Source: an uncultured Elusimicrobia bacterium (GTDB taxonomy: Bacteria > Elusimicrobiota > Elusimicrobia > 2-01-FULL-59-12). From it: a stretch of DNA of 64,000 nucleotides. The notes beneath the pieces were generated by a model. The model was given only the letters and a program-made list of their open reading frames with translations, made no database searches and was not told the origin of the DNA. Where the stretch lies: the NCBI GenBank assembly GCA_963702895.1, contig OY969767.1, forward strand, positions 32,001-96,000. The letters run 5' to 3'. Below, piece by piece: positions 44,133 to 61,075 of the stretch (positions are counted from its first letter, which is position 1; each line of letters opens with the position of its first letter). Made by a program: the position numbers and the translations under genes.

Positions 44133-44933
44133 GGCATTCTGGGTTGACGACATTTGGAAAGCTTCGCGCATCGCCTCCGTAAGAGAATTTTTCTTATGCA
44201 GCTCTTTGAAGGTGTCCAAACTTCCATCAAACAGTAGCCGGCCGTGGTTGATGAGCAGCACGCGTGAACAAAGCTCCGCGACATCTTCCATGTTATGACT
44301 GGTGAGAAGGATGGTGGCCTTGAAGCGCCGATTGTATTCCAGGATAAATTGGCGCACTTTCTGCTGCATCACCACATCCAGGCCGATCGTGGGCTCGTCC
44401 AGAAGAAGGACGCGCGGCCGGTGTAGGAGTGAGCAGGCAAGCTCCGCCTTCATGCGCTGACCGAGCGATAACTTTTTCACGGGGACTTCGAGCAGCTCTT
44501 CAATCTCTAAGAGGCGCGAAAGCTCCGTGAGGGTCGCCTGATACGGCTCGTCGGGAATTTCGAAAATCTCCTTGTTCAGCAGGAAGGAATCGACAGCAGG
44601 CAAGTCCCACCACAGCTGCGTGCGCTGACCCATCACCATGGTCAGCTGCCGCTGGTAGGCACTCTCTCTCTTCCAGGGAATATGTCCGAGCACTTGGGCT
44701 TCGCCGGATGTGGGGTGAAGAAGCCCGGCAAGCATCTTGAGCGTTGTCGTCTTCCCCGCTCCGTTAGGGCCAAGAAATCCGACCAATTCCCCTTCACGGA
44801 TTTGAAAGGAGATGTCTTGAACGGCGTGAACCTTACGATAGGTGCGCTTGAAGAGACCTTTGAGCGAGCCGGCGAGCCCCGCCTCTTTCTGTTCGACCAG
44901 AAAGGTCTTGGAGAGATGAGAAACTTTAATCAT
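44067..44933 (-). CDS. ABC transporter ATP-binding protein
   Basis: Walker A GPNGAGKTT, signature LSLGQ, Walker B LLLDEPT. Likely start MIKVSHL at 44933. The C-terminal tail derives from a palindromic repeat. Confidence 0.93.
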   Translation of the reverse strand: MIKVSHLSKTFLVEQKEAGLAGSLKGLFKRTYRKVHAVQDISFQIREGELVGFLGPNGAGKTTTLKMLAGLLHPTSGEAQVLGHIPWKRESAYQRQLTMVMGQRTQLWWDLPAVDSFLLNKEIFEIPDEPYQATLTELSRLLEIEELLEVPVKKLSLGQRMKAELACSLLHRPRVLLLDEPTIGLDVVMQQKVRQFILEYNRRFKATILLTSHNMEDVAELCSRVLLINHGRLLFDGSLDTFKELHKKNSLTEAMREAFQMSSTQNAVTPEIRHPGSINDAHDVMDPG

Positions 44934-45993
44934 GGAGCAACTTGCCGGCTCCGGCGGAGAGCAGCTGGGCCGCCAGGCGCTCCCCGACGCCCGCCGCGTC
45001 AAAGGGCCGTCCTCGCTCGGCCGCGCGCAGGGCTTCTTTGCCATCGGGTGAAAGAACCATTCCCTTCATGACGAGACTCCCCGATTCAAGCACGGCGTGG
45101 CCGGCAATCGGGGTTTGGCAGCTGCCTCCCAACCCTTTGAGAAAGGCACGCTCCGCGAGCACAGCCTGATGAGAAGGGGCATGATCAATTGCCTTCAGAT
45201 AGGGGGCCATGGCGGCGTCCCCTTTCCGGACTTCAAGGGCGAGCGCCCCTTGGCCGATAGCCGGCAGAAGGACCTCGGGCGAAAGCACTTCCGTGATGTC
45301 CTTGGCCCGCCCCAGGCGTTTGAGCCCGGCCGCGGCCAGGATGATGCCGTCCAGATGTTCTTCCTGGAGCTTGCGAAGCCGCGTGTCCACGTTGCCGCGC
45401 AGGGGAACGATCTCGAGATCGGGTCTGGCCGCTTTGAGCTGAGCCATACGCCTGGCCGCTCCCGTTCCGACGCGCGCGCCATGCCTCAGTTTGCTGAAGG
45501 GGGTATTGTCTTTGGAGATCCAAGCGTCATAGGGATTTTCTCTCTCCGGGACAGCCCCCAGCACAAGGCCTTGGGGCAGCTCGGCGGACATGTCTTTTAA
45601 GGAGTGAACGGCGAGATCGATCCTCTTTTGAAGCAGCGCGTCTTCCAATTCCTTGGTGAAAAGGGCTTTGAGCCCGCCTTTGATGTTCTCCCCTCCATCC
45701 ATTCCCCTCATGGTGTCATCCCCCCCGGTTGTAAGGGGGGGATCCATCAATCCTGGAAATGATGGATCCCGGCTGACGGCATGCCGGGATGACGGCAAAG
45801 AGGTGTCGCCCGGGGGGGATGACGACAGTGCTGAGGCATCCGCCGTGGATGACGACATCTTGTCGCCGGTTGTCGTGATCAGGACGAGTTCGATCTCAAG
45901 CCCTGCAAAGGCCTCTTGGAGTCGCGCGGCCACCCACTTGGCCTGGGTTTGCGCCAGCACGCTCTTGCGGGTCCCTAAGCGGAGCGTTTTCAC
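44926..45993 (-). CDS. hemC: Hydroxymethylbilane synthase with ~50-aa repeat-derived insertion
   Basis: LGTRKSVLA, AVHSLKD, LRGNVDTRL and GGSCQTPIAG motifs. Confidence 0.96.
   Translation of the reverse strand: MKTLRLGTRKSVLAQTQAKWVAARLQEAFAGLEIELVLITTTGDKMSSSTADASALSSSPPGDTSLPSSRHAVSRDPSFPGLMDPPLTTGGDDTMRGMDGGENIKGGLKALFTKELEDALLQKRIDLAVHSLKDMSAELPQGLVLGAVPERENPYDAWISKDNTPFSKLRHGARVGTGAARRMAQLKAARPDLEIVPLRGNVDTRLRKLQEEHLDGIILAAAGLKRLGRAKDITEVLSPEVLLPAIGQGALALEVRKGDAAMAPYLKAIDHAPSHQAVLAERAFLKGLGGSCQTPIAGHAVLESGSLVMKGMVLSPDGKEALRAAERGRPFDAAGVGERLAAQLLSAGAGKLLHD
45715..45793. repeat. REP-like palindrome pair inside hemC
   Basis: GTCATCCCCCCCGGTTGTAAGGGGGGGATCCA...TGGATCCCGGC..GCCGGGATGAC. Confidence 0.88.
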
Positions 45994-45995
45994 AG

Positions 45996-47084
45996 CTAAT
46001 CAGCGGTTGTGACCGGAGGGGTACTGAGGACGGCAGTTGGTGCTCGATGCTTGAGGCCCGTCAGGACGCCATTTCGGTGAGCGCGCAGCCAGCGGATAAA
46101 TTCTCGCGTTTCTTCCTTAACGATTTGCAGGGCGGAGTCGGCTTCTTTGGCCCGCTGAGCGTTGTTGGCGGCCACCATATGCTCAAGATTGTTGATGTTG
46201 TAGAGATAGACATTCTCGATGTCGTTCACGGAAGGCTCCACGTCACGCGGCATGGCGATGTCGATCAAAAAAAGCGAGCGGCCTTTGCGCAGGTCCATGA
46301 TCTGCTCGATATGGCGCCTGGTGATGACGGCGTGCGGCGCGGCCGTCGAGCAAATCACGATGTCCACCTCGCTCATCTTCCGCAGTCCCTCTTCAAAAGG
46401 CAGGGCTGAACCGTTGAAGCGTTTGGCCAGCTCACATGCCCGATCAAACGTCCGGTTGGCGACCAGAATCGATTGCGCGTGCTGCGCCATGAGATGTTTG
46501 GCCGTGACTTCGGCCATTTCGCCTGCTCCCAATATCATAATCTGGCGATCGCGGAGCTCTCCAAAGATGCGCGTCGCCATCCCAACAGCAATGCTTCCTA
46601 CGGAAGCAGCGCCCTCTCCGAGGGCGGTTTCGGTTCTGACTCGCTTTCCCACATACAAGCTCCGCTGAAAAAGAACATTCAGGAGTTTGCCGGTCACGCC
46701 AGCTTGCTGGGCGATTTGGTACGCCTGTTTCACCTGCGCGAGGATTTCATGCTCGCCTTTGACCATGGAGTCAAGCCCCGCGGCGACGGAGAAGAGGTGC
46801 AGTACCGCCGCGTCGCTTTCGTGGAAATACAGATACTGAGGGAGGGCCCCGAGATGAGCATGCTGCACCAGAAGCCCCTCGAGAGCCTCTCTGGCCCGGA
46901 CACGGTTTTGGGCCCGAACGTAGAGCTCGGTTCGATTGCATGTTGAAAGGCACACGAGCTCTTCAACGTCCGCTTTGGTTTTCCATTCGTGGAGTGTGGC
47001 AGGCAGCTCCTGCGCCGCCAGGGTGAGCTTCTCGCGGATGTCCAGCGGCGCGCTTTCGTGATTAAGCCCCAAGACAAAAGGCAT
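45996..47084 (-). CDS. hemA: Glutamyl-tRNA reductase, short C-terminus
   Basis: LSTCNRTE, GLDSMVKGEHEILAQ, GAGEM and IDIAMPRDV motifs. Likely start MPFVLGLNH overlapping the upstream TGA. Confidence 0.95.
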   Translation of the reverse strand: MPFVLGLNHESAPLDIREKLTLAAQELPATLHEWKTKADVEELVCLSTCNRTELYVRAQNRVRAREALEGLLVQHAHLGALPQYLYFHESDAAVLHLFSVAAGLDSMVKGEHEILAQVKQAYQIAQQAGVTGKLLNVLFQRSLYVGKRVRTETALGEGAASVGSIAVGMATRIFGELRDRQIMILGAGEMAEVTAKHLMAQHAQSILVANRTFDRACELAKRFNGSALPFEEGLRKMSEVDIVICSTAAPHAVITRRHIEQIMDLRKGRSLFLIDIAMPRDVEPSVNDIENVYLYNINNLEHMVAANNAQRAKEADSALQIVKEETREFIRWLRAHRNGVLTGLKHRAPTAVLSTPPVTTAD

Positions 47085-47545
47085 CAGCGCCCTCCTTGCG
47101 CGTGCAGCGGGCTCAAGAAAGGCAGCGTGACGAGCGCGGTTAAAATCACCGCGAAACCGATCAGAGCAAGATACGTCGAGCGACGTCCGCGCCATCCCAA
47201 GGTCCAGCGAGTGACGAGATAGATGGCATAGATTGTCCAGGTCAGAAAAGAGAGGGTTTCGGATGGATCGTACCCCCAGTAGCTCTTGCGCGTAAAGATG
47301 GCCCAGTGGCCCCCCAGGAGAATTCCTAGGGTCAACAGGGGAAATGATATGGCGATCATCCGGTAAATAAAGCGGTCCAGAGTCTCCAGCGGCGGCAGTC
47401 GTGATGTGATGGCATCGACGTCATGACTTTTGATCCGATGTTCCTGGACCAAAAACAGGATGCCGGCGCCCGCGGCCAGAAGAAAGAGAACACAGGAAGC
47501 AAAGATAAAAGGCACATGCAGCAAGATCCAAGGCGGGGGTTTCAT
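47084..47545 (-). CDS. Cytochrome c assembly (CcsA/HemX-like) membrane protein
   Basis: LHVP, GILLGGHWA...YWGYDPSET and GWRGRR motifs; sits upstream of hemA. Confidence 0.85.
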   Translation of the reverse strand: MKPPPWILLHVPFIFASCVLFLLAAGAGILFLVQEHRIKSHDVDAITSRLPPLETLDRFIYRMIAISFPLLTLGILLGGHWAIFTRKSYWGYDPSETLSFLTWTIYAIYLVTRWTLGWRGRRSTYLALIGFAVILTALVTLPFLSPLHAQGGR

Positions 47546-47643
47546 AGCAAGCCTTCTGGAATCATTCCTTGAAATTTCACCGAACGTTCGCGATTCCCTT
47601 AAGTGACGGGAGAATCGCTCAAAACAGGGGCCGGGTTTCCAGC

Positions 47644-48648
47644 CTAAGCGGGGACCGGCACATCGGGAACGGCCTGTTCTTTCTTGCGAAGCAAGCCTTC
47701 AAACTCCTCCAGCACATGTTTGTCCCACCAGCCTTTGTTGACCTCATCCCACATGATCTCCAGGGCGATATCCGGGGGCAGCCGCTTGCGGTAAGAGCGC
47801 GTGGTGGTTAAGGCATCGTAGATGTCGACAATCGTCATAATACGGGCCAAGAGCGGAATATCCTCGCCCGAGAGCTGATCGGGGTAGCCGGTTCCGTCCA
47901 GACGCTCGTGATGGTGGCGGATCACGGGGATGGCGCCCTTGATCGATTTCAGCTTTTCGCAGATTTTGGCGCCTTGTCCCGGATGCATCCGGATGATCTT
48001 GCGCTCCTCCGTTGTTAAAGGCCCCGCCTTGTTTAGAATTCTGTCCGGCACGCCGATTTTCCCGATATCGTGGAGGATGCCTCCTTTTCGGAGGGAATCG
48101 ATCTCATCCTCCCCAAGGCCCAAGTGCTCGCCCAGGCTCACCGCCATTTGCGAGACGCGCTCCACATGGCCCTGGGTGTAGGCATCCTTCGCTTCAATGG
48201 CGCGAGCCATGGAAAAGAGAACGGCTTCTGCGGAGTCCAGCTGCTCATTGAGATACTTCACTTTAAGAAGAGATTTGATGCGGGTGACGAGCTCCACCGT
48301 GTTGTAGGGTTTGTTCACAAAATCATCGGCCCCCGCCTCGAGGGCCTCGAGCTTCTTCTCGAAATCGGAGTGGGCGGTGAGCATGATGACCGGGGTGAGG
48401 CGCGCCTCCTCGTCATTTTTGAGCTGCCGGCACATGGAAATGCCGTCCATGCGGGGCATATTGACGTCTAAAAGGAGGATATCGGGCGAAAGCAATTTCA
48501 TTTTCTCGAGCCCTTCGACGCCATCACGAGCCACAGCAACAGAAAACCCCTTGGAGACAAGAATCGGCTCAAGAATGCCAACGGCATGAGGATCATCTTC
48601 AACCAGGAGGACTTTCGCTCCTGCGAAGGAATGGCCGGACGGTAGCAT
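47644..48648 (-). CDS. REC-HD-GYP response regulator (RpfG-like c-di-GMP phosphodiesterase)
   Basis: REC domain (LLVEDD, LLDVNMP, FVNKP) plus YTQGH, LHDIGK and HHERLDGTGYP. Confidence 0.93.
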   Translation of the reverse strand: MLPSGHSFAGAKVLLVEDDPHAVGILEPILVSKGFSVAVARDGVEGLEKMKLLSPDILLLDVNMPRMDGISMCRQLKNDEEARLTPVIMLTAHSDFEKKLEALEAGADDFVNKPYNTVELVTRIKSLLKVKYLNEQLDSAEAVLFSMARAIEAKDAYTQGHVERVSQMAVSLGEHLGLGEDEIDSLRKGGILHDIGKIGVPDRILNKAGPLTTEERKIIRMHPGQGAKICEKLKSIKGAIPVIRHHHERLDGTGYPDQLSGEDIPLLARIMTIVDIYDALTTTRSYRKRLPPDIALEIMWDEVNKGWWDKHVLEEFEGLLRKKEQAVPDVPVPA

Positions 48649-48654
48649 GGATTT

Positions 48655-48663
48655 ATTGTATCA
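48655..48663 (-). promoter_or_regulatory. Extended -10 promoter, probable leaderless mRNA
   Basis: TG-A-TACAAT six nt before the ATG at 48648; no SD. Confidence 0.5.
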
Positions 48664-48880
48664 CCTTTTCACAGACCGCAAGCCGGCGTGGATCCGACGA
48701 GGCAGGCCCCTCTGCCGCGTAAAAACGCGATCAAAAGCGGGGTGTCGCACCCGCCATTTTCCCCCTTGAAAAGGAAGTGGACCCCTGTTAGCCTTCCCGA
48801 GTCTGTCGGGGGTCGCCCTTCCTGAGTTGTAAGGGTCCTGGTTCACCGCAGCAATCTTGATCACTTGATTGAGGTCCATT

Positions 48881-49099
48881 ATGGAAAAACATGTTTTGCT
48901 TGGCAGTCTCTTTTTACGCATCGCGTCGATCTACGCTGGCACGACGCACAGTGACCTGGCCGCGCATCGGAAGCACCGTAGGCGGAAGAAAGTGGATCAC
49001 GAGGACGTGCTGGAGAAAGCGCGCTGGAAAGTGGAGCTCCTTTCGAAGACCACAGAAGAGGCTTCTCACAAAGCCAACGGATCGGGAAAACTTAATTAG
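48881..49099 (+). CDS. Small hypothetical basic protein
   Basis: MEKHVLLGSLFLRIAS...; GAGG upstream; no recognisable family. Confidence 0.45.
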   Translation: MEKHVLLGSLFLRIASIYAGTTHSDLAAHRKHRRRKKVDHEDVLEKARWKVELLSKTTEEASHKANGSGKLN

Positions 49100-49102
49100 G
49101 AT

Positions 49103-49309
49103 GTCACCCCGGCGGTTGTAAGCCGGGGTCTATCAACAGAGTGACAGACATGATGGATCCCGGGTCTCCACAAGACCGGCGACCCTCCGCCACACGACAG
49201 GCGGAGAGCTCCGCCACAAGGCAGGCGGACCAGCCTGTAGTGTGGCTGGGCCTGGTGGGTGGCGCTCGGCCCGCCGGGTGTGTGGAGGGCCGGCTTTCGC
49301 CGGGATGAC
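49103..49309. repeat. Composite REP-like element with nested hairpins, between convergent genes
   Basis: GTCACCCCGGC..GCCGGGGTC, TGGATCCCGGGTCTCCACAAG..., nested TCCGCC..GGCGGA, ending CCGGCTTTCGCCGGGATGAC. Confidence 0.85.
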
Positions 49310-49310
49310 A

Positions 49311-50411
49311 TCAGAGGCACGCCAGCGGTGTGTAAGGGAGCTTCTGGGCATCCGCGACGGGACGGCATAAGACTTTTCCCCCATGCGTTTGAATCCCCTT
49401 CGCTAGTCCGGGTGCCTCTCTGAGCACTCTCGTGAGGCTTGTCTCTGTCAGCACACGCACATACGCCAGGGACACGTTCGTCAGCGCCAGGGTCGAGGTC
49501 CGCCCATAGGCGCCCGGCATGTTGGGGACCGCGTAATGAAGGACATTCTCCTCGATATAGGTCGGTTTTGCGTGGCTCGTAGGGTGTGAGGTTTCAGAAC
49601 TACCCCCTTGGTCGATCGCCACATCGATGATCACGCTCCGAGGTTTCATCCTTTTCACCATGGCGCGTGTGACGAGCCGCGGCGTGCGGGCGCCCGGGAT
49701 GTGGACCGCGCCAATCAGGATGTCGGCGGTACTCACGGCGTTTCGAATGGCGACGGGATCGGCCATAAGGGTTTCCACGTGAGGCATAATCTCGTCCAAA
49801 TAGCGCATGCGGTCGGATCGTCGCTCGAGGATCGTGACATGGGATCCCATGCCGAGCGCTACGCGCGCCGCGTTTTCCCCCACCGTCCCGCCGCCCAGGA
49901 CCACCACATGGGCCGGGAGAACCCCGGGCATTCCTCCAAAGAGGATGCCGCGTCCACCCTGAGGATTGGCTTGGTAATAAGCGCCCATGAGCGCAGCGAT
50001 GCGGCCGGCGATCTCCGACATCGGTTCCAAGATCGGGAGATTCCCTTTGTCGTCTTCCACGGTCTCGTAGGCGATGGCGGTGACATGCCGCCGCAAAAGA
50101 GCTTTCACGAGCGGCGGGTTGGGTGCTAAGTGTAAGAAGGTAAAGAGAATCTGCTTGGGCCTGAAGTATTTGAATTCCTGGGGGAGCGGCTCTTTCACTT
50201 TGACGATGAGGTCTGCGCTCCAGGCGCGCCGGGCATCGACAAGCGTCGCCCCGGCTTTTCGGTATTCGGCGTCGGAGAAGCCCGCGTGCTCGCCGGCGCT
50301 TTTTTGGATGAGGACCCGATGGCCAAGGCTCTGCAGGGACTCGGCGCCGCCCGGGGTGAGCGCGACGCGAAATTCGCCGCTCTTAATTTCTTTAGGTATC
50401 CCTATTAACAT
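49311..50411 (-). CDS. ald: Alanine dehydrogenase
   Basis: [37 protein letters not shown] and YAVPNMPG motifs. Confidence 0.97.
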
Positions 50412-50491
50412 AGATGGTCGTGATTAGGTGAGTAAGTGATTAAGTGATTGGGGGAAAGACAATCCACCCCTTCATCCCCTAATCACGCACC

Positions 50492-50668
50492 TTAACCTTG
50501 AAGTTTCCCCCCCATGGACCATTTTTCACGCTCCACATCTTCAAAGACAATCCAGGTATGGTCATCGGTGATTTTGCAATGTTTGCTGATCACCTGGGTG
50601 AGCTCTTTGGCGAGCGCTTCTTTCACTTCTTTGGGTCTTGGAAACATGGAAATACGAACAAAGGGCAT
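50492..50668 (-). CDS. 4-oxalocrotonate tautomerase family protein (58 aa, not in ORF track)
   Basis: AGGAGG RBS; MPFVRISMFPRPKEVKEALAKELTQVISKHCKITDDHTWIVFEDVEREKWSMGGKLQG with the catalytic N-terminal Pro and a WxxGG end. Confidence 0.88.
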   Translation of the reverse strand: MPFVRISMFPRPKEVKEALAKELTQVISKHCKITDDHTWIVFEDVEREKWSMGGKLQG

Positions 50669-50686
50669 GCCGTCCTCCTTCTTTCT

Positions 50687-50791
50687 GTCATCCCCGAGGT
50701 CGTCATCGGGGATCCATCATACCAACGTCATACCGGCGGAAGCCGGTATCCATTATTGCCCATGATAGACCCCGGCTTTCGCCGGGGTGAC
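50687..50791. repeat. Cluster of three REP-like palindromes, including an intact IS110 target
   Basis: GTCATCCCCGA..TCGGGGATCCA; GTCATACCGGC..GCCGGTATCCA; GACCCCGGCTTTCGCCGGGGTGAC. Confidence 0.88.
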
Positions 50792-50797
50792 GGCAAG

Positions 50798-52336
50798 TTA
50801 TTTACCAATACAAAACTGTGAAAACACTTGATCCAACAAATCTTCCGTCGTCGTTTGGCCAATGATCTCACCGAGAGCCGATAGAGCGCTTTGGAGCTCC
50901 AGCGCCACGCATTCCTCATGGGCGTCCTGCCGGGCGGCCTCGGCGGCCTGCGTGACGGCCGTCTGGGCGCGCTCGAGCGCCGAGGTGTGCCGCGCGTTCA
51001 AAAGCCACCGGGCCTCGCCGGCGGTCGCCCTTTCGGCGATCGCGCTGCGAACGATGGCGTCGATGAGATCCTCCAGCCCTGTTCCGGTCTTGGCGGACAA
51101 GGGGATCACCTCGCCTCCGCCGTTCATCGAGCGGAGCTTTTGAGCGGAGACACGCGAAGGCAGATCGCATTTGTTGAGGACCCACAGATGCGGTTTCCTG
51201 GCCGCTTCCACGATGACCTGCTCGTCTTCCGGGGTCCATTCTTCCGAGCCGTCAAAGAGGCCGATGACGATATCGGCGCTGTCCACCGACTGGCGCGTGC
51301 GCTCGATTCCCAGCTTCTCGACCGGGTCCTGGGCGCGGCGCCTCAGTCCCGCGGTGTCCGTCAAGACGACCGGAATCCCGCGGAGGTCGAGTGTCTCTTC
51401 CAGCGTGTCGCGCGTCGTGCCCGCGATGGGCGTGACGATGGCCCGTTCCTCTTTTAAAAGCGAATTCATGAGACTCGATTTGCCCACGTTGGGCCGTCCC
51501 AGGAGCGCGACGCGATAGCCTTCGCGCAGCACTTTGCCTATCCGCGAGGACGCCATGATTTGAGCGATCTCCTGTTGCAGGAACTGGCAGGTGGAAATCA
51601 GTTCTTCGCGCGGAAGAACACCATGGTCCTCCTCCGCGTGGTCCAGGCCCACCTCGATGCGGGCCAGAAGCGGCAGGAGCTTCTCGCGGAGGCCGCGGAC
51701 GCGCGCGGCGAGGCTCCCCCGCAGTTGAGCGAAAGCCGCGGCCTGGGATTTCTCCGTTTTGGCGGCGATGAGCTCGGCGACGGCTTCGGCCTGGGTGAGG
51801 TCCATCTTGCCGTTCAGGAAGGCGCGGGCGGTGAATTCTCCGGGTCCCGCGAGCCGTGCGCCGCCCGCGACGCAGAGCTTCAGGATCTTCCGCAGCGTCA
51901 AAGGACTTCCGTGGGCGGAGATCTCCACGACGTCCTCGCCGGTGTAGCTGTGCGGCGCCCGAAAAAGAGTGATCACAACCTGATCAACGTCAATGCCGTC
52001 ATCCCCCCCGGTTGTCCCCTTCCTGTTGTCATCCCCCCCGGTCGTAAGGGGGGGACCCATCACGTCTTGTTCGGCAACGATGGACCCCGGCTTTCGCCGG
52101 GGTGACGTCGTATCTTCGGGTATCATCCCCGGGGTGACGTCAGAGACGCTTCGGTCAAGAATCGTCCCAAAATAACACGTGTGGGAAGGAGCCGTAGAAA
52201 GATCGACTGGTTTTAGTGGAGAAAAAATGGATTTGGCGATCCCGAGCGCTGTTTGTCCGCTTACCCGGATCACGCCCAGCCCTCCTTCGCCGAGCGGTGT
52301 GGCGATCGCGGCGATGGTGTCTTCTGGAGCGATCAT
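50798..52336 (-). CDS. mnmE: tRNA modification GTPase MnmE with ~45-aa repeat-derived insertion
   Basis: DTIAAIATP, SYTGEDVVEI, GRPNVGKSS, GTTRD, DTAGLR and C-terminal FCIGK. Confidence 0.97.
   Translation of the reverse strand: MIAPEDTIAAIATPLGEGGLGVIRVSGQTALGIAKSIFSPLKPVDLSTAPSHTCYFGTILDRSVSDVTPGMIPEDTTSPRRKPGSIVAEQDVMGPPLTTGGDDNRKGTTGGDDGIDVDQVVITLFRAPHSYTGEDVVEISAHGSPLTLRKILKLCVAGGARLAGPGEFTARAFLNGKMDLTQAEAVAELIAAKTEKSQAAAFAQLRGSLAARVRGLREKLLPLLARIEVGLDHAEEDHGVLPREELISTCQFLQQEIAQIMASSRIGKVLREGYRVALLGRPNVGKSSLMNSLLKEERAIVTPIAGTTRDTLEETLDLRGIPVVLTDTAGLRRRAQDPVEKLGIERTRQSVDSADIVIGLFDGSEEWTPEDEQVIVEAARKPHLWVLNKCDLPSRVSAQKLRSMNGGGEVIPLSAKTGTGLEDLIDAIVRSAIAERATAGEARWLLNARHTSALERAQTAVTQAAEAARQDAHEECVALELQSALSALGEIIGQTTTEDLLDQVFSQFCIGK
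51998..52140. repeat. REP-like palindromes inside mnmE
   Basis: GTCATCCCCCCCGGTCGTAAGGGGGGGACCCA...TGGACCCCGGCTTTCGCCGGGGTGAC plus partial copies. Confidence 0.88.
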
Positions 52337-53898
52337 TCCTTGACGAGGGTGGTTTCGACGACCTGGGACGGCTTGCGGGTGATGCGCTCAAAACCCCACT
52401 GCGTGGCCATCGTCATGAGGTTTTGGGTGAGCCAGTAGAGGACAAGCCCGGACGGGAAGCCGTAGAACATGAACGTGAACATGATGGGCATCAGCGTCAT
52501 CATGTGGCGTTGCGTGGGATCGGACACGGCGCCGGACATGCGCTGCTGAAAATACATCGCGCCACCCATGACCAGCGGCAGCACATGCACCGGGATACTT
52601 CCCACACGGGTGATCACGTCGGGCACAGAAAGATCATGGATCCATCCGACAAACGGCGTCCCTCGCAGCTCATAGGCGTTGCGGAGCGTGTTAAAGAGCG
52701 CAAGAAAGATCGGCATTTGGAGCAGCATGGGAAGACACCCTCCAAAGGGATTGGTGCCGGAGGTTTTGTAGACGTTCATCATCTCAACATTCAAGCGCTT
52801 GGGATCACTCTTATAACGTGCCTGGATTTCCGCGATTTTGGGCTGGAGCTTTTTCATCGCCAGCGTCGCTTTGAAACTTTTGATGGTGAGCGGCAGCATG
52901 AGAATCTGGATCACGATGGTCAGGAGAATGATGGCCAGGCCGTAGTTGCCGGTGAGCGCTCGGAAGTAGTAGAGCGCGTTCAGGATCAGTCGGCCAAGAC
53001 TGGTGAACCACCCGAAATCAACGCTGTTTTCCAGATGACGGCCGTATTTCTTGAGCGCTGTGTAGCCTTTGGGCCCGACGTAAAGATCGTAAGAGATCTC
53101 GGTTTGACCCCCGGCGGGAATGACGGTCTTTTCCGTAAGACGCATCTGTGTCTGGTCTTTCGCGCCCGCCATCGACACTTCCGCCGCGTGGCCGGCCAGC
53201 GGCAGAAACGCGACGAGATAATAGCGATTGTCGATCGCGGCCCACTGCTCGAGATCCTGGCGCATATCGGCCTTGAGCGTGTGGACCTTGAGCTTCCCGA
53301 GTTGAATGACGCGGATCACGCTCGCGTTTTCCTTCATTTCCGCCGCGTCGGTTCCAAGCCCCGGTCCCCAACCCCAGGACCAGCCGGGCAGCGTCACGGC
53401 TCGAGAGGTCGTGTTGGTGAACTTGTAGGAAATCTTATGGAGATGCCCCGTGGGAGCAAGCGCCAAAGTCTTGGTCACACGCAGGCCATTGCCAAGCGAA
53501 GCCTGCATGATGGCGGCGGACTCTTGAACCGTGATGCTGTAGGACACTTCTGGGAATGAGGCTAAGGGAAGGGTCTCGGCATCGGGAGAAAGGACCATGT
53601 CCATTTCCTTGCCGCCCAGCTTCAGCCGCCAGGTCTTGATGGCGCCGCCTTTTGGCGTGATCACAATCTCATTACCCGCGTCGCGCAGGATCGCGTCCTT
53701 GAGGACAACGGGCTCGCCCTGACGCTTGTGGGCCGATGAGATTTCCATCTTGGGCTGGGTTTCAATCACGGCCTCTTGTGCGGCGGTCGTCGGAGCGGGA
53801 GTTGGGCGCGGCGTGAATCGCGGCACGACAACGACGGACCATAGGAAAAGGAAACCTACGATCAAAGCCATCGCGAGAAGGAAATTCTTTTGTTCCAT
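52333..53898 (-). CDS. yidC: Membrane protein insertase YidC
   Basis: N-terminal TM, YVGPK, VDFGWF, GGCLPMLLQMPIF and GLVLYW motifs. Confidence 0.97.
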   Translation of the reverse strand: MEQKNFLLAMALIVGFLFLWSVVVVPRFTPRPTPAPTTAAQEAVIETQPKMEISSAHKRQGEPVVLKDAILRDAGNEIVITPKGGAIKTWRLKLGGKEMDMVLSPDAETLPLASFPEVSYSITVQESAAIMQASLGNGLRVTKTLALAPTGHLHKISYKFTNTTSRAVTLPGWSWGWGPGLGTDAAEMKENASVIRVIQLGKLKVHTLKADMRQDLEQWAAIDNRYYLVAFLPLAGHAAEVSMAGAKDQTQMRLTEKTVIPAGGQTEISYDLYVGPKGYTALKKYGRHLENSVDFGWFTSLGRLILNALYYFRALTGNYGLAIILLTIVIQILMLPLTIKSFKATLAMKKLQPKIAEIQARYKSDPKRLNVEMMNVYKTSGTNPFGGCLPMLLQMPIFLALFNTLRNAYELRGTPFVGWIHDLSVPDVITRVGSIPVHVLPLVMGGAMYFQQRMSGAVSDPTQRHMMTLMPIMFTFMFYGFPSGLVLYWLTQNLMTMATQWGFERITRKPSQVVETTLVKE

Positions 53899-53907
53899 AC
53901 TTTCTCC

Positions 53908-54135
53908 TTAAATAGGAATAGGGTCATAACCCCCGGGGTGCCAGGGGTGGCATTTGAGAAGTCGTCGAACGGTCATGACAAAACCTTTGGAAAATCCTTT
54001 GGCGGAGAGCGCCTGCAGCGCGTAATCCGAGCAGGTGGGGTAAAACCGGCAGCGGCGAGGCCGTCCTGCGAAGCCCATCTGATAAAGGCGAATCAGGAGT
54101 TTGGCGGCGCTTGTAATAAATTGGCTTGCGTCCAT
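53908..54135 (-). CDS. yidD: Membrane protein insertion efficiency factor YidD
   Basis: CRFYPTCSDY and RLLKCHPWHPGGYDP motifs. Confidence 0.95.
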   Translation of the reverse strand: MDASQFITSAAKLLIRLYQMGFAGRPRRCRFYPTCSDYALQALSAKGFSKGFVMTVRRLLKCHPWHPGGYDPIPI

Positions 54136-54536
54136 AGTTTCAGCACCAACTGCTCGATCGTTTGATACCGGGGCTTCACGAGGGACGAACGGGCGGAAAA
54201 CACCATATCGACCCCCGGAGGCAACTTCACTTTATTGAGCCTGAACGTCTCGCGAAGAAGGCGCTTCATCCTGTTTCGCGCGACAGCGTTGCCAAAGGCT
54301 TTTGGAATCGCAAGACCCAGCCGCGGCTTCTCCTCGCGCTCTGAGCCTTCGCGTCTGTAGATCCATATCGTGAGACCTGAATTCCCAAGTCGGCGGCCTT
54401 GCTCAAAGACACGCTTGAAATCACATTTCCGGTGGAGTTTTTCGTCCCAGCGGAATCGCCCGCCGCGTGGCTGGCAAGGCTGTCCTCCCTCCTGGGCGGC
54501 GGGCCTCTGCCCGCTTTCTGGAGGACGCTGGTTCAC
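54093..54536 (-). CDS. rnpA: Ribonuclease P protein component
   Basis: RLGLAIPKAFGNAVARNRMKRLLRETFR (RNR motif); start position uncertain. Confidence 0.93.
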   Translation of the reverse strand: MNQRPPESGQRPAAQEGGQPCQPRGGRFRWDEKLHRKCDFKRVFEQGRRLGNSGLTIWIYRREGSEREEKPRLGLAIPKAFGNAVARNRMKRLLRETFRLNKVKLPPGVDMVFSARSSLVKPRYQTIEQLVLKLWTQANLLQAPPNS

Positions 54537-54540
54537 TTGC

Positions 54541-54681
54541 TTACTTGGGGGTCAGCCGCCAGCGGCCCTTTTGCCTGCGGTTTTTGAGCACGCGGCGGCC
54601 GCCGGGAGTTTTCATCTTGGCTCGAAATCCATGAACCTTCGCGCGGTGGCGCACATTAGGCTGATAAGTTCGTTTTGGCAT
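54541..54681 (-). CDS. rpmH: 50S ribosomal protein L34 (not in ORF track)
   Basis: [46 protein letters not shown]. Confidence 0.97.
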
Positions 54682-54719
54682 AACGGGGGTGATTATACAT
54701 CACCTTGGTGGGAACAGCG

Positions 54720-55322
54720 ACGGCGGATCTTCAGTTCCGTGGGGCGGATCTTTGGTACCGTGCGGCAGATCCTTGGGACCCTGAGGCAGATCTTTGGGAC
54801 CGTGGGGCGGATCTTTGGTACCGTGCGGCAGATCTCAGGCTCCGTGCGGCGGATTCAAGGAACCATGCGGCGGATCTCAGGAACCATGGGGCGGATCTCA
54901 GGCTCCATGAGGCGGATTCGATGGACCGTGAGGCGGATCTGCGGCACCATGAGGCAGATATTCGGTTCCGTGGGGCGGATCTTTGGTGCCGTGAGGCAGA
55001 TCCTCAGTACCGTGCGGCAGATCTCAGGCTCCGTGCGGCGGATTCAAGGAACCATGCGGCGGATCTCCAGTACCATGGGGCGGATCTCAGGCTCCGTGCG
55101 GCGGATCCGTGGAACCATGGGGCGGATCTCAGGCTCCGTGAGGCGGATCCGCGGAACCATGAGGCGGATTCGATGGATCGTGAGGCAGATCCGCCGTATG
55201 GTACTTGAGATCCGCTGTATGGAACCGAAGATCCGCCGTATGGAGCCGAAGATCCGCCGTATGGTACTGGAGATCCGCCGTACGGTACTTGAGATCCGCC
55301 GTACGGAGCCGAAGATCCACCG
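54720..55322. repeat. 21-bp degenerate tandem array with orientation switch near 55190
   Basis: About 22 units like GGCGGATCTCAGGCTCCGTGC, then about 6 units like GATCCGCCGTATGGTACTTGA in the reverse-complement orientation. Confidence 0.92.
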
Positions 55323-58297: not shown

Positions 58298-58306
58298 TAT
58301 TAGACT

Positions 58307-58485
58307 TTTCTCGAGTCTTTGTAGACTCTAGAAGAAGACACCGACAAGAATGGAATAAGTCTAACTTTCGCCAAGGTGAAAACCATACCCCGGTAAAGAC
58401 CCCATTCTTTCGTGATCCAAAGCTAGATAGAAGTGATGTCATAAAAACCCTTAATAGGCAAAGCTCGCATCACGAATGTCGGCAC
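58307..58485 (+). ncRNA. Predicted IS110 bridge RNA
   Basis: 5' hairpin GAGTCT/AGACTC; closing stem CCGACA/TGTCGG; target loop with CTTTCGCC and ACCCCGG; donor loop with ATAGAAGT and TAATAGG. Confidence 0.85.
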
Positions 58486-58502
58486 TTACAAAAAGGAGCC
58501 TT

Positions 58503-59528
58503 ATGAACCCACCTCTCCATTACATAGGCGTTGATATCGCCGATCAAACCTTCAGCGCAACACATTACAGCTCAGCCGAACAAAAGTATTCCAAACATCA
58601 GACGCTCGCCAATACACCCGCCGGCTTTGAGGAATTCGAAGCCTGGTTTAAGAAACGCGGAGTCGATTCCACCAATACCGTGGTCTGCATGGAAGCCACC
58701 GGTGTTTATGCGGAGCAGCTCTGCTACTGGCTCTGTGCCAAAGGCTATCCGGTGTCGGTGGAGGCGCCGCATAAAACCAAACGCGCCTTTCACCCCCTGG
58801 GAGCCAAAAGCGACCCCATCGATAGCCGCCAGCTCGCCGAATATGCCTGGCGCTTTTTCGATCAACTCGCGTTCTGGAAACCCTCGGAAGCCTTGATCGA
58901 ACAAGTCCGTGTTCTTCTGACGACGCGCGAGCAGCTGACCGGCCAGATGACCGCCAATCAAAATGCCTTGTCGGCCATCAGCCGGAAAGTCGTTCGCACG
59001 ATCCTCGCCGAACAAAGCTTCCTGGACACCATCCGCCATCTCAAAGAACAGATCAAAAAAATCGATCAGGCCTTGGATCAACTGATCTCAAACCACCCCA
59101 CCATTGGCCCCATGGTGAGCTTGCTGCTCACCATCCCTGGGGTGGGCCGACTCTTGACGGCCCATTTGATGGTCATCAGCCAAGGCTTTACGCGATCCCT
59201 GGAACCCCGCCGCATCGCCTCGTATTTGGGCATGTGCCCACTCGAACACTCCAGCGGAACTTCCGTGCGCAAGAATGCAAGCTCTCGCGGGATCGGTCCG
59301 GACATCATCCGCAAGCTATTGCACCTGGCAGCCCGATCCCTTCGCACACATCATCAGCAGTTCAGGCACTACTTTGAAAGAAAAGTACAAGCCGGAAAAG
59401 CCAAACGCTTGGCGCTCAACAACATTGCCAACAAACTCTTGCGCATTATCTGTGCCGTACTGCGCACAAAGTCACCGTATCTTGCTGACTATAGGTCAGT
59501 CAATCCTCGGATCCTAAAAAATGCTTGA
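58503..59528 (+). CDS. IS110 DEDD (RuvC-like) recombinase/transposase
   Basis: AAGGAG RBS; YIGVDIA, CMEATGVY, KSDPIDS, IPGVG and EHSSG motifs. Confidence 0.96.
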   Translation: MNPPLHYIGVDIADQTFSATHYSSAEQKYSKHQTLANTPAGFEEFEAWFKKRGVDSTNTVVCMEATGVYAEQLCYWLCAKGYPVSVEAPHKTKRAFHPLGAKSDPIDSRQLAEYAWRFFDQLAFWKPSEALIEQVRVLLTTREQLTGQMTANQNALSAISRKVVRTILAEQSFLDTIRHLKEQIKKIDQALDQLISNHPTIGPMVSLLLTIPGVGRLLTAHLMVISQGFTRSLEPRRIASYLGMCPLEHSSGTSVRKNASSRGIGPDIIRKLLHLAARSLRTHHQQFRHYFERKVQAGKAKRLALNNIANKLLRIICAVLRTKSPYLADYRSVNPRILKNA

Positions 59529-59687
59529 CCGAGGTCATAGAAATCGGGGTGACGGCACAAAAAAGTGCATCGAGTTCAGACGATGAGGCAAAATGAACCG
59601 AAGATCTCCGGTTAGCTTCGGCCGCAGCAGGGGGCACTCATGAGGAGTCTCTTAGGCGCTGATTTTATCTACAAATAAAGTCAAAAT

Positions 59688-61075
59688 GAGTTCTTGTCAA
59701 ATGTACTGGAAATAGGGCAACGCCCCTTTCGTTGAATGTCTCTTAGGCCGCGACCTCCAGCTTCTCTCTTTCCACAAATAGTACTTCAACCAATTCCGGC
59801 TTTGCGATCGGCTTCCAGAACTGCGCTAAACGCTCAATGACCTTGTAGACGAATGCCACGCCTGTTCGGGATTTCTGGAACCGGCGCACGACTCGCGTCC
59901 GCAACCGCACTCCCGCGAAGACCGACTCAATCGGATTGCTCGTCTTCAAATGGACCCAGTGCTCCTTCGGAAAGTCGAAGTACCTCAGCAACGTGTCATG
60001 ATCCTTGCGCACACAAGCCGCAGCCTTCGGATAGCGAATTTCAAGATCCTCAGCCAACAAGGCCAACTGGTTCTCCGCGTCTTCGCGGCGCTCCGCCTGA
60101 TAGGCCACCCGCAGGCGATTGAGGACTTCATCCTGCTTAGCCTTCGGCACTTTATCCACGACGTTGCGCATCTTGTGCTTCCAACACCGTTGATCCTTCG
60201 CCGAGGGATACACCTCTGCCACCGCCTCCCAGAGCCCTCCGATCCCGTCGCCGATGACCAACAGCGGAGCAGGCATACCGCGCTCCGCGACCCCTCTCCA
60301 GATTTCCTTCCAGGAATCCCGGCTCTCCCGGTAGCCTTCCATCAGCGCGATCAGTTCCTTCTGGCCTTTCGCGTTGACGCCCACCAGAACCAGAAGCGCT
60401 GTGTTCTCTTTTTCCAGCCCCGCTTTTAAATACACGCCGTCTGCCCAGACATAGGCGTAACGCGTCTCCGATAGGTCCCGGCGACTGAACGTAGCCAGGT
60501 CCGACTGAAACTTCGCCGATAGACGCAGGATCGTGCTGGCTGATAAGGTGGCTCCATCCCCGATCAGTGCTCGCAACGCCGGCTCAAAGTCCCGACTCGA
60601 GAGTCCCTCCAGGTACAGCCGCCGGAATAACTCCTCGACCCCTTCCGTCCGCCGCTGGTAGGGCCGCAAGATGCTCGACTCAAACTCGCCTCCGTCCACC
60701 TGGGGCACCGATAGCTTCAGCCCCGCCCCCAACACCGTCACCTTCCGCTCCCGCGTTCCGTTCCGATAGCCTTTCTCCAGATTCTTCGCCCGTTCATAGC
60801 GCCGACGCTCTAAATACATCGTCACTTCTTCTTCCAGGGCCTCCACCAGCATCTTGCGCGCTCCTTCACGGGCCAGATAATCCACCATGCTCTCGCCTTT
60901 GTGCTGAGTCCCTTTCTCGTTTACAATGGTTTCCATAACGGCGTCTCCTTTTCGTTTATTGTCCGCTCGAACGGACAGGTTTGTGTGTTTCAACGAAAGG
61001 GTACGCCGTTTCTATTTCCTAAGGCAAATCCTTCCTTGCCTTAAAACCTATTTCCAGCACTTTTGATGGTAACTC
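59688..61075 (-). mobile_element. IS256-family element
   Basis: Imperfect 29-bp TIRs (GAGTTCTTGTCAAATGTACTGGAAATAGG vs GAGTTACCATCAAAAGTGCTGGAAATAGG) and 8-bp TSD GTCAAAAT at 59680-59687 and 61076-61083. Confidence 0.93.
59743..60936 (-). CDS. IS256 (Mutator-type) DDE transposase
   Basis: YRNG, YVWADGVY, IGDG, QRCWKHK and TSNPIES motifs. Likely start METIV at 60936. Confidence 0.95.
   Translation of the reverse strand: METIVNEKGTQHKGESMVDYLAREGARKMLVEALEEEVTMYLERRRYERAKNLEKGYRNGTRERKVTVLGAGLKLSVPQVDGGEFESSILRPYQRRTEGVEELFRRLYLEGLSSRDFEPALRALIGDGATLSASTILRLSAKFQSDLATFSRRDLSETRYAYVWADGVYLKAGLEKENTALLVLVGVNAKGQKELIALMEGYRESRDSWKEIWRGVAERGMPAPLLVIGDGIGGLWEAVAEVYPSAKDQRCWKHKMRNVVDKVPKAKQDEVLNRLRVAYQAERREDAENQLALLAEDLEIRYPKAAACVRKDHDTLLRYFDFPKEHWVHLKTSNPIESVFAGVRLRTRVVRRFQKSRTGVAFVYKVIERLAQFWKPIAKPELVEVLFVEREKLEVAA

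Follow-up and report, generated by a model that had tools for sequence, protein, structure and literature searches.

In-frame CGTC-type palindromic repeats in mnmE of an Elusimicrobia bacterium and the IS110 target that they carry

How does a conserved gene come to carry, in frame, a palindromic element that contains the exact target sequence of a resident IS110 transposon, and is that target kept empty by selection? The question is raised by the mnmE (trmE) gene of an Elusimicrobia bacterium, which lies in the window analysed here (the whole stretch of 64,000 nucleotides, G000:C1:32001-96000) of a 2.72-Mb genome assembled as a single contig (G000). The source labels of close MnmE homologues name Elusimicrobiota, and the top solved-structure matches of the product are MnmE/TrmE proteins (3geh, 1xzp and 9hip). 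The gene and the elements in and beside it are as follows:

50798..52336, minus strand: mnmE (trmE), 512 aa in an unbroken frame, with the G-domain motif GRPNVGKSS
51992..52153, minus strand: in-frame insert, residues 62-115, net gain of 52 aa
51998..52015, plus strand: outer half-arm, repeating the start of unit 1
52028..52059, plus strand: REP unit 1, a CGTC-type hairpin with a long 8-nt loop, whose minus strand encodes MGPPLTTGGDD
52080..52107, minus strand: REP unit 2, a CGTC-type hairpin with a 4-nt loop, head-to-head with unit 1 and fitting the published degenerate SRM motif
52127..52138, minus strand: outer half-arm, repeating the start of unit 2
52091..52103, plus strand: exact IS110 target 13-mer, empty
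50765..50792, minus strand: intergenic REP unit just beyond the mnmE stop, with a second exact target at 50776-50788, at 9 nt from the stop, empty

The palindromic element that a preliminary description had noticed in the mnmE frame is a head-to-head pair of CGTC-type REP hairpins separated by a unique spacer, both intact and near consensus, with one change in unit 1 relative to the common ATCCA tail. The units (52028-52059 and 52081-52106) have the CGTC/TGTC tag, the 8-9 bp stem starting with A and the CCA tail of CGTC REPs; of the two loops, the 4 nt of unit 2 fall within the 4-5 nt described for these repeats and the 8 nt of unit 1 represent a variant common in this genome. As in RPE-like insertions, the insert is in frame, is missing from orthologues and occupies a surface loop. 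Extra residues are indeed present between YFGTILD and DVDQVV, where translation places 54 residues, MGPPLTTGGDD among them; the earlier size of about 45 aa has to be raised, as the aligned loop has 63 residues here and 11 in the uninserted same-genus protein P0054, a net difference of 52 aa. In an AlphaFold model the insert forms the turn of a beta-hairpin joining strands 53-61 and 115-125, with pLDDT <50 at residues 64-111, while the rest of the model folds as MnmE; the insert loop is predicted to be disordered.

A second repeat pair is read in frame in the same window:

45715..45793, minus strand: REP pair in frame in hemC (44926-45993, minus strand), with further outer half-arms

The translations bear out the observation that MDPPLTTGGDD of hemC and MGPPLTTGGDD of mnmE are read in the same frame, and the repeat DNA of the two genes is 80% alike across 61 nt. 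The shared frame was rejected as a signal of selection: 9 of 11 internal units use it, against 58% expected (p 0.13), in a count from which three chance-like matches had been removed beforehand.

Both pairs belong to a large family. A pattern search of the genome for the CGTC hairpin returned 282 units in 184 clusters, compared with 2, 1 and 0 in three shuffles. By gene calls from a hexamer model built for this analysis, as distinct from a standard annotator, 152 of the 184 clusters are intergenic, 26 lie within called genes and 6 at gene edges, and 89 clusters are pairs, so that the high copy number, inverted pairing and chiefly intergenic position of CGTC REPs are all found here. Host genes identified by Pfam encode DnaE, ClpB, UvrA, MetH, RuvC and a class I tRNA synthetase. 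Extra outer half-arms such as those around the mnmE pair also occur at hemC and clpB, and accompany 5 of 36 coding units and 6 of the remaining 246 (p 0.007, on units that are non-independent and come from few loci). The layout closest to that of the mnmE insert is found between genes at G000:C1:1844310-1844720, where nested REP pairs follow one another in tandem and half-arms are stacked. At window positions 59545-59620 a REP is followed by a conserved tail of about 70 nt, present at at least 10 genome sites, which suggests that this tail is part of a longer composite element.

Repeats of other kinds also occur in the window. At 54659-55313, about 30 imperfect copies of a 21-nt unit stand in tandem, with several reading frames open through them, and from about 1 to 40000 there are modules at 1875-nt spacing, the ORFs listed there all being short, consistent with one very long minus-strand gene running off the window.

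The age of the insert can be read from relatives. Ten other genomes of the family were searched with an N-terminal MnmE query, and nine gave an mnmE match. The gene is without insert in the same-genus genomes G001 and G003, even though G001 contains 135 CGTC units and 104 BoxC hairpins. G007 and G005 carry, at the same mnmE codon, a BoxC-type palindrome unrelated to CGTC, which is in frame in G007 and runs into an N gap in G005; the loop is longer by 6 residues in G008 and by 4 in P0076. Among distant MnmE (65 loci tried), all 42 that were readable by pattern have the short loop, and a metagenome scan returned distant MnmE only, 33-49% identical. An ancient conserved feature of MnmE, the alternative origin raised in the preliminary description, is thus ruled out by uninserted relatives and by the short loop of distant MnmE.

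The same turn has received inserts elsewhere in the lineage. Among 64 related MnmE proteins, defined as those returned for an uninserted query, inserts of at least 12 aa are confined to three loops, with 5 near residue 45, 14 at the loop studied here and about 13 near residue 350. The 14 inserts at this loop (a count that includes P0001) are repeat-like, and most non-carriers keep a loop of 11-12 residues. With G005 and G007 there are 16 carriers, four with CGTC-type and 12 with BoxC-type peptides, the class being confirmed by DNA for G000, G005 and G007 and taken from the peptide pattern alone for 13 of the 16. A tree was built from 69 rows and 409 columns, after dropping 2 proteins of <400 aa, adding 3 genome loci and 4 outgroups, and removing the loop columns. 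Parsimony requires 16 changes for the 16 carriers, scattered over the tree, a count that fits gain and loss alike; as 28 of the 66 inner branches of this quick tree are open and a constrained search was better by 14 log-likelihood units, 16 is an upper-side count, and the independent events number from several to 16. A single clade is rejected by AU tests for CGTC-type and BoxC-type carriers alike (p 6e-56 and 2e-61). P0001 and P0002 as one event are not rejected (AU p 0.69) and may share one, the insert of P0002 having the same outer-plus-inner layout as that in mnmE of G000. The three insert-bearing genomes hold the most CGTC units among the 12 searched (270, 222 and 149). HemC mirrors this pattern at a loop of its own (window 45650-45850 in G000), which has an insert of CGTC type in G000 and G007 and of BoxC type in G006 and G008, the one in G008 being a half copy.

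Other observations in MnmE concern further loops and repeats. The loops near residues 45 and 350 also gather repeat-like peptides, and several proteins have two inserts; proteins with inserts at further loops are P0012, P0053, P0065, P0073 and P0074, and P0003, P0005, P0040, P0086 and others. At the same loop as in our genome, a tandem repeat with a 7-nt unit is read in frame in G037 and is possibly a third repeat class, and G135 has about 25 extra residues at a neighbouring loop, with no obvious palindrome.

The transposon whose target lies in the insert is present in the same window:

58298..59544, plus strand: IS110 element, 1247 bp, one of five identical copies, inside a REP hairpin
58503..59528, plus strand: IS110 recombinase, 341 aa, with PF01548 and PF02371
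58330..58470, plus strand: predicted bridge RNA in the IS110 left end
58365-58372 (left) and 58387-58393 (right), plus strand: target guides of the predicted bridge RNA, read by eye
58427-58434 (7/8 match) and 58452-58457 (6/6 match), plus strand: donor guides of the predicted bridge RNA

The element has a left end of 205 nt and a right end of 16 nt. The region of the predicted bridge RNA folds at z -3.44, in a single-sequence fold that pairs the left target guide instead of leaving it open. Read from the insertion sites, the target core is CC and the donor core TC, and all five copies split the 13-mer between its two halves. The exact 13-mer at 52091-52103 matches the guides of this element, as first noticed from the sequence, and because the mnmE site also matches the 21-nt context common to all five filled sites and retains the hairpin stem, it is probably a competent target. 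The stem may matter, since a target stem-loop is described as gating ISPpu10 in the available part of bioRxiv 10.64898/2026.03.19.712850.

A search of 301 genomes of the phylum at E 1e-40 found this IS110 in none of the 300 other than G000, and the only relative in a contig search was one distant fragment, while CGTC repeats were found in 11 of the 12 genomes of the order; the IS110 therefore most likely arrived after the repeats. Since its 13-mer is the commonest short REP loop, and since the IS was found in this genome alone of the 301 and the repeats extend across the family, the target in mnmE is a by-product of the repeat. That repeat spread had placed a transposon landing site in the gene, as the preliminary description proposed, is borne out by an insert that is repeat-derived, recent and provided with the full target in an intact hairpin.

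This IS110 has company. A second IS110-like type has three copies near G000:C1 130200, 181200 and 1125500, within BoxC-type repeats, and a third has five copies near 416600, 647200, 671400, 2233500 and 2427400, just beyond repeat units at a common short site, such that the genome has three IS110 types with three repeat-linked targets. At window positions 59743-60936 there is a second transposase-like ORF, which may be IS256-like, with a 113-nt end exactly common to 5 other sites.

Of the 42 exact 13-mer sites in the genome, 5 are filled and the other 37 empty. Called genes contain six of the empty sites; two of these six, in a low-score (12) 99-aa ORF made of repeat array, were counted as intergenic, and the four coding targets are in mnmE, in a 586-aa flavoprotein (presumably nadB-like), and in RuvC and a formyltransferase, in both of which the site lies in the C-terminal tail. 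The preliminary description expected selection to keep coding copies empty while intergenic copies fill, and the second half of this expectation failed, as 33 of the 38 intergenic targets are empty too. We give about even chances to the proposal that IS110 enters coding and intergenic targets alike and that selection removes the coding insertions, which would appear as a significant deficit. It agrees with the position of the filled sites, five of five being intergenic and four of four coding targets empty, with the full shared context and hairpin of the mnmE target, and with the disruption of the mnmE frame that 1247 bp at codon 77-81 would cause. However, with none of the four coding targets filled as against five of the 38 intergenic ones, the Fisher p is 1.0, an empty coding set being expected by chance about 59% of the time (hypergeometric), and a significant deficit would take about 30 independent insertions; two of the four coding targets lie in the C-terminal tails, where an insertion may cost little; and the perfect target is not depleted in coding copies, with four perfect against about eight one-mismatch repeat-derived copies in called genes. 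One small-share DNA read run gave scattered short pieces on 44500-54300, none of those listed spanning the insert, and is silent on occupancy. On data this few, selection keeping coding copies empty is plausible but unsupported.

We consider it very probable that an ordinary CGTC/SRM repeat pair landed in an insert-tolerant turn of MnmE, that this turn is a lineage-wide repeat sink, and that its IS110 target is accidental. This reading starts from the observed anatomy of the insert, the guide match, the use of the target and the scattered recurrence. The pair would have landed in a turn that tolerates added residues and survived as its length preserves the frame; it would be translated as a disordered loop, probably without a function of its own; and the turn would serve as a sink for whichever palindromic repeat abounds. 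As the guides of the recently acquired IS110 fit the commonest short hairpin of the family, the mnmE copy would have become a competent target by accident, and insertion there would break mnmE and probably be purged. A different account, which is possible but which we lean against, sees in the loop either a hot spot at the DNA level or the scar of an old repeat, in which an early repeat was refreshed, replaced or deleted by repeat-into-repeat events, so that many carriers go back to few first insertions. The outer half-arms around the pairs in mnmE, hemC and clpB, the outer-plus-inner layout of P0002, and the short remnants in G008 and P0076 would be expected of such a scar; yet the CGTC and BoxC classes have no common sequence, and the ancestral loop of 11-12 residues in most non-carriers would need many precise losses. 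That the insert is functional, as an mRNA hairpin, as a protein loop that tunes MnmE or as a reversible on/off socket for IS110, is very unlikely: its hairpins are intact and near consensus, and IS110 excision is described as scarless in the accessible part of PMC11208160, but length, class and sequence vary among relatives, most of which have none, the fold of the insert as a whole has only a modest advantage over those of shuffles (z -1.71), and none of the four coding targets is filled. An assembly artefact, with repeat copies mis-joined into mnmE, would suit a repeat-rich genome with no independent read set across the locus; it is hardly credible for a single contig in which the frame is kept on both sides and the spacers are unique, given that genomes assembled independently carry similar inserts at the same mnmE codon.

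As spreaders of the repeats the genome offers two candidates:

G000:C1:543327-543617: Ssn-like GIY-YIG gene, single domain, 96-97 aa
G000:C1:554270-554563: Ssn-like GIY-YIG gene, single domain, 96-97 aa

These two of nine GIY-YIG hits are boxed by inverted CGTC REP units, one on each side (543292-543644 and 554229-554602). One of the flanking units has exactly the sequence of the mnmE target hairpin. For comparison, at least one REP unit lies within 300 nt of 30 of 292 small genes. The SRM motif that 52080-52107 fits has 147 matches in the genome, compared with 18-31 in shuffles, and 121 of the 282 REP units match it. GIY-YIG homologues are present in 9 of the 12 order genomes, and the extra half-arms are placed on the side at which published Ssn cuts. 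By a likeness to Ssn that consists in size, Pfam family and gene context, the two genes are candidate spreaders of CGTC REPs, and we infer that Ssn may move the repeats. A mobiliser of RAYT type was rejected, the search having given a single weak partial Y1_Tnp match. Other small GIY-YIG genes, at G000:C1:205875, 580617, 1700967, 1813193 and 1813505, lie beside or between what by eye seem to be tRNA genes or duplicated ends of tRNAs, and the one at 1700967 is followed by a long 4-nt microsatellite.

We put forward tentatively, and regard as rather unlikely, a three-tier arrangement in which an Ssn gene between inverted CGTC hairpins would be the autonomous element, head-to-head REP pairs its gene-less derivatives, and the IS110s their followers. 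Ssn would nick just 5' of the GTC tag; during repair, hairpins would be copied both to new sites and into old ones, which would account for the stacked outer half-arms of mnmE, hemC and clpB; a few tolerant protein loops would be reseeded repeatedly; and RNA-guided IS110s would then aim at the hairpin loop. If true, this would fill a gap noted for CGTC REPs, which have been described as having no mobiliser. As one complete genome holds the repeat, a candidate nuclease and a repeat-aimed IS110, the spread of CGTC repeats becomes testable with defined parts. What the mnmE case adds is one turn with inserts in 14 of 64 related proteins, drawn from at least two unrelated repeat classes, and hence a natural test of loop tolerance versus targeted insertion.

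In-frame REPs, REP-targeting IS110s, bridge-RNA targeting and Ssn/SRM pairs have all been published before; a literature search covering papers readable without subscription found none that deals with repeats inside mnmE, and none that treats Ssn and IS110 together. CGTC REPs are described, in the available text of PMC3733652, as GTC-tagged hairpins with a CCA tail, mostly in head-to-head pairs and with other loop sizes in some species, and Di Nocera et al. 2013 (PMC3733652) report there that some CGTC REPs, like Rickettsia RPE-4 and RPE-6, are read in frame within housekeeping and repair genes, whose products they lengthen by 20-82 aa. The mnmE insert resembles these intragenic repeats in its GTC-tagged head-to-head hairpins, its reading frame and its housekeeping host gene; the host organism differs, being a member of Elusimicrobiota, and a common insertion site is given for recB only in the portion of PMC3733652 at hand, with mnmE, trmE and hemC not found in four of its supplements. 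BoxC / PIT / TM-ECO repeats are, according to the accessible part of PMC4666352, always intergenic in E. coli MG1655. In G005 and G007 the mnmE inserts include the hairpin portion of this consensus (PMC4666352), and in G007, unlike in E. coli MG1655, the repeat is read in frame. Ssn is a GIY-YIG nuclease with NTS/SRM repeats that cuts single-stranded DNA a few bases upstream of a hairpin (Chenal et al. 2025, PMC11893778); in the available part of that paper Ssn/SRM are likened to insertion sequences, with repeat mobilisation not shown and IS110 not mentioned. The two GIY-YIG genes of our genome are like Ssn (PMC11893778) in being single-domain, 96-97 aa long and flanked by inverted repeats. 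REPs as targets of insertion sequences were already published (PMC1525189, as far as its available text extends), and the REP-targeting IS110s IS621, ISPpu9 and ISPpu10 are described, in the accessible parts of PMC11208160, PMC1525189 and bioRxiv 10.64898/2026.03.19.712850, as having a DEDD recombinase and a long left end that carries the guides for target and donor. The IS110 of this genome shares with them the DEDD recombinase, the long left end with guides and the single insertion position inside a repeat hairpin, and differs from them in a target of CGTC/SRM repeats, in a core of CC/TC rather than CT, and in having one of its targets in conserved coding sequence.
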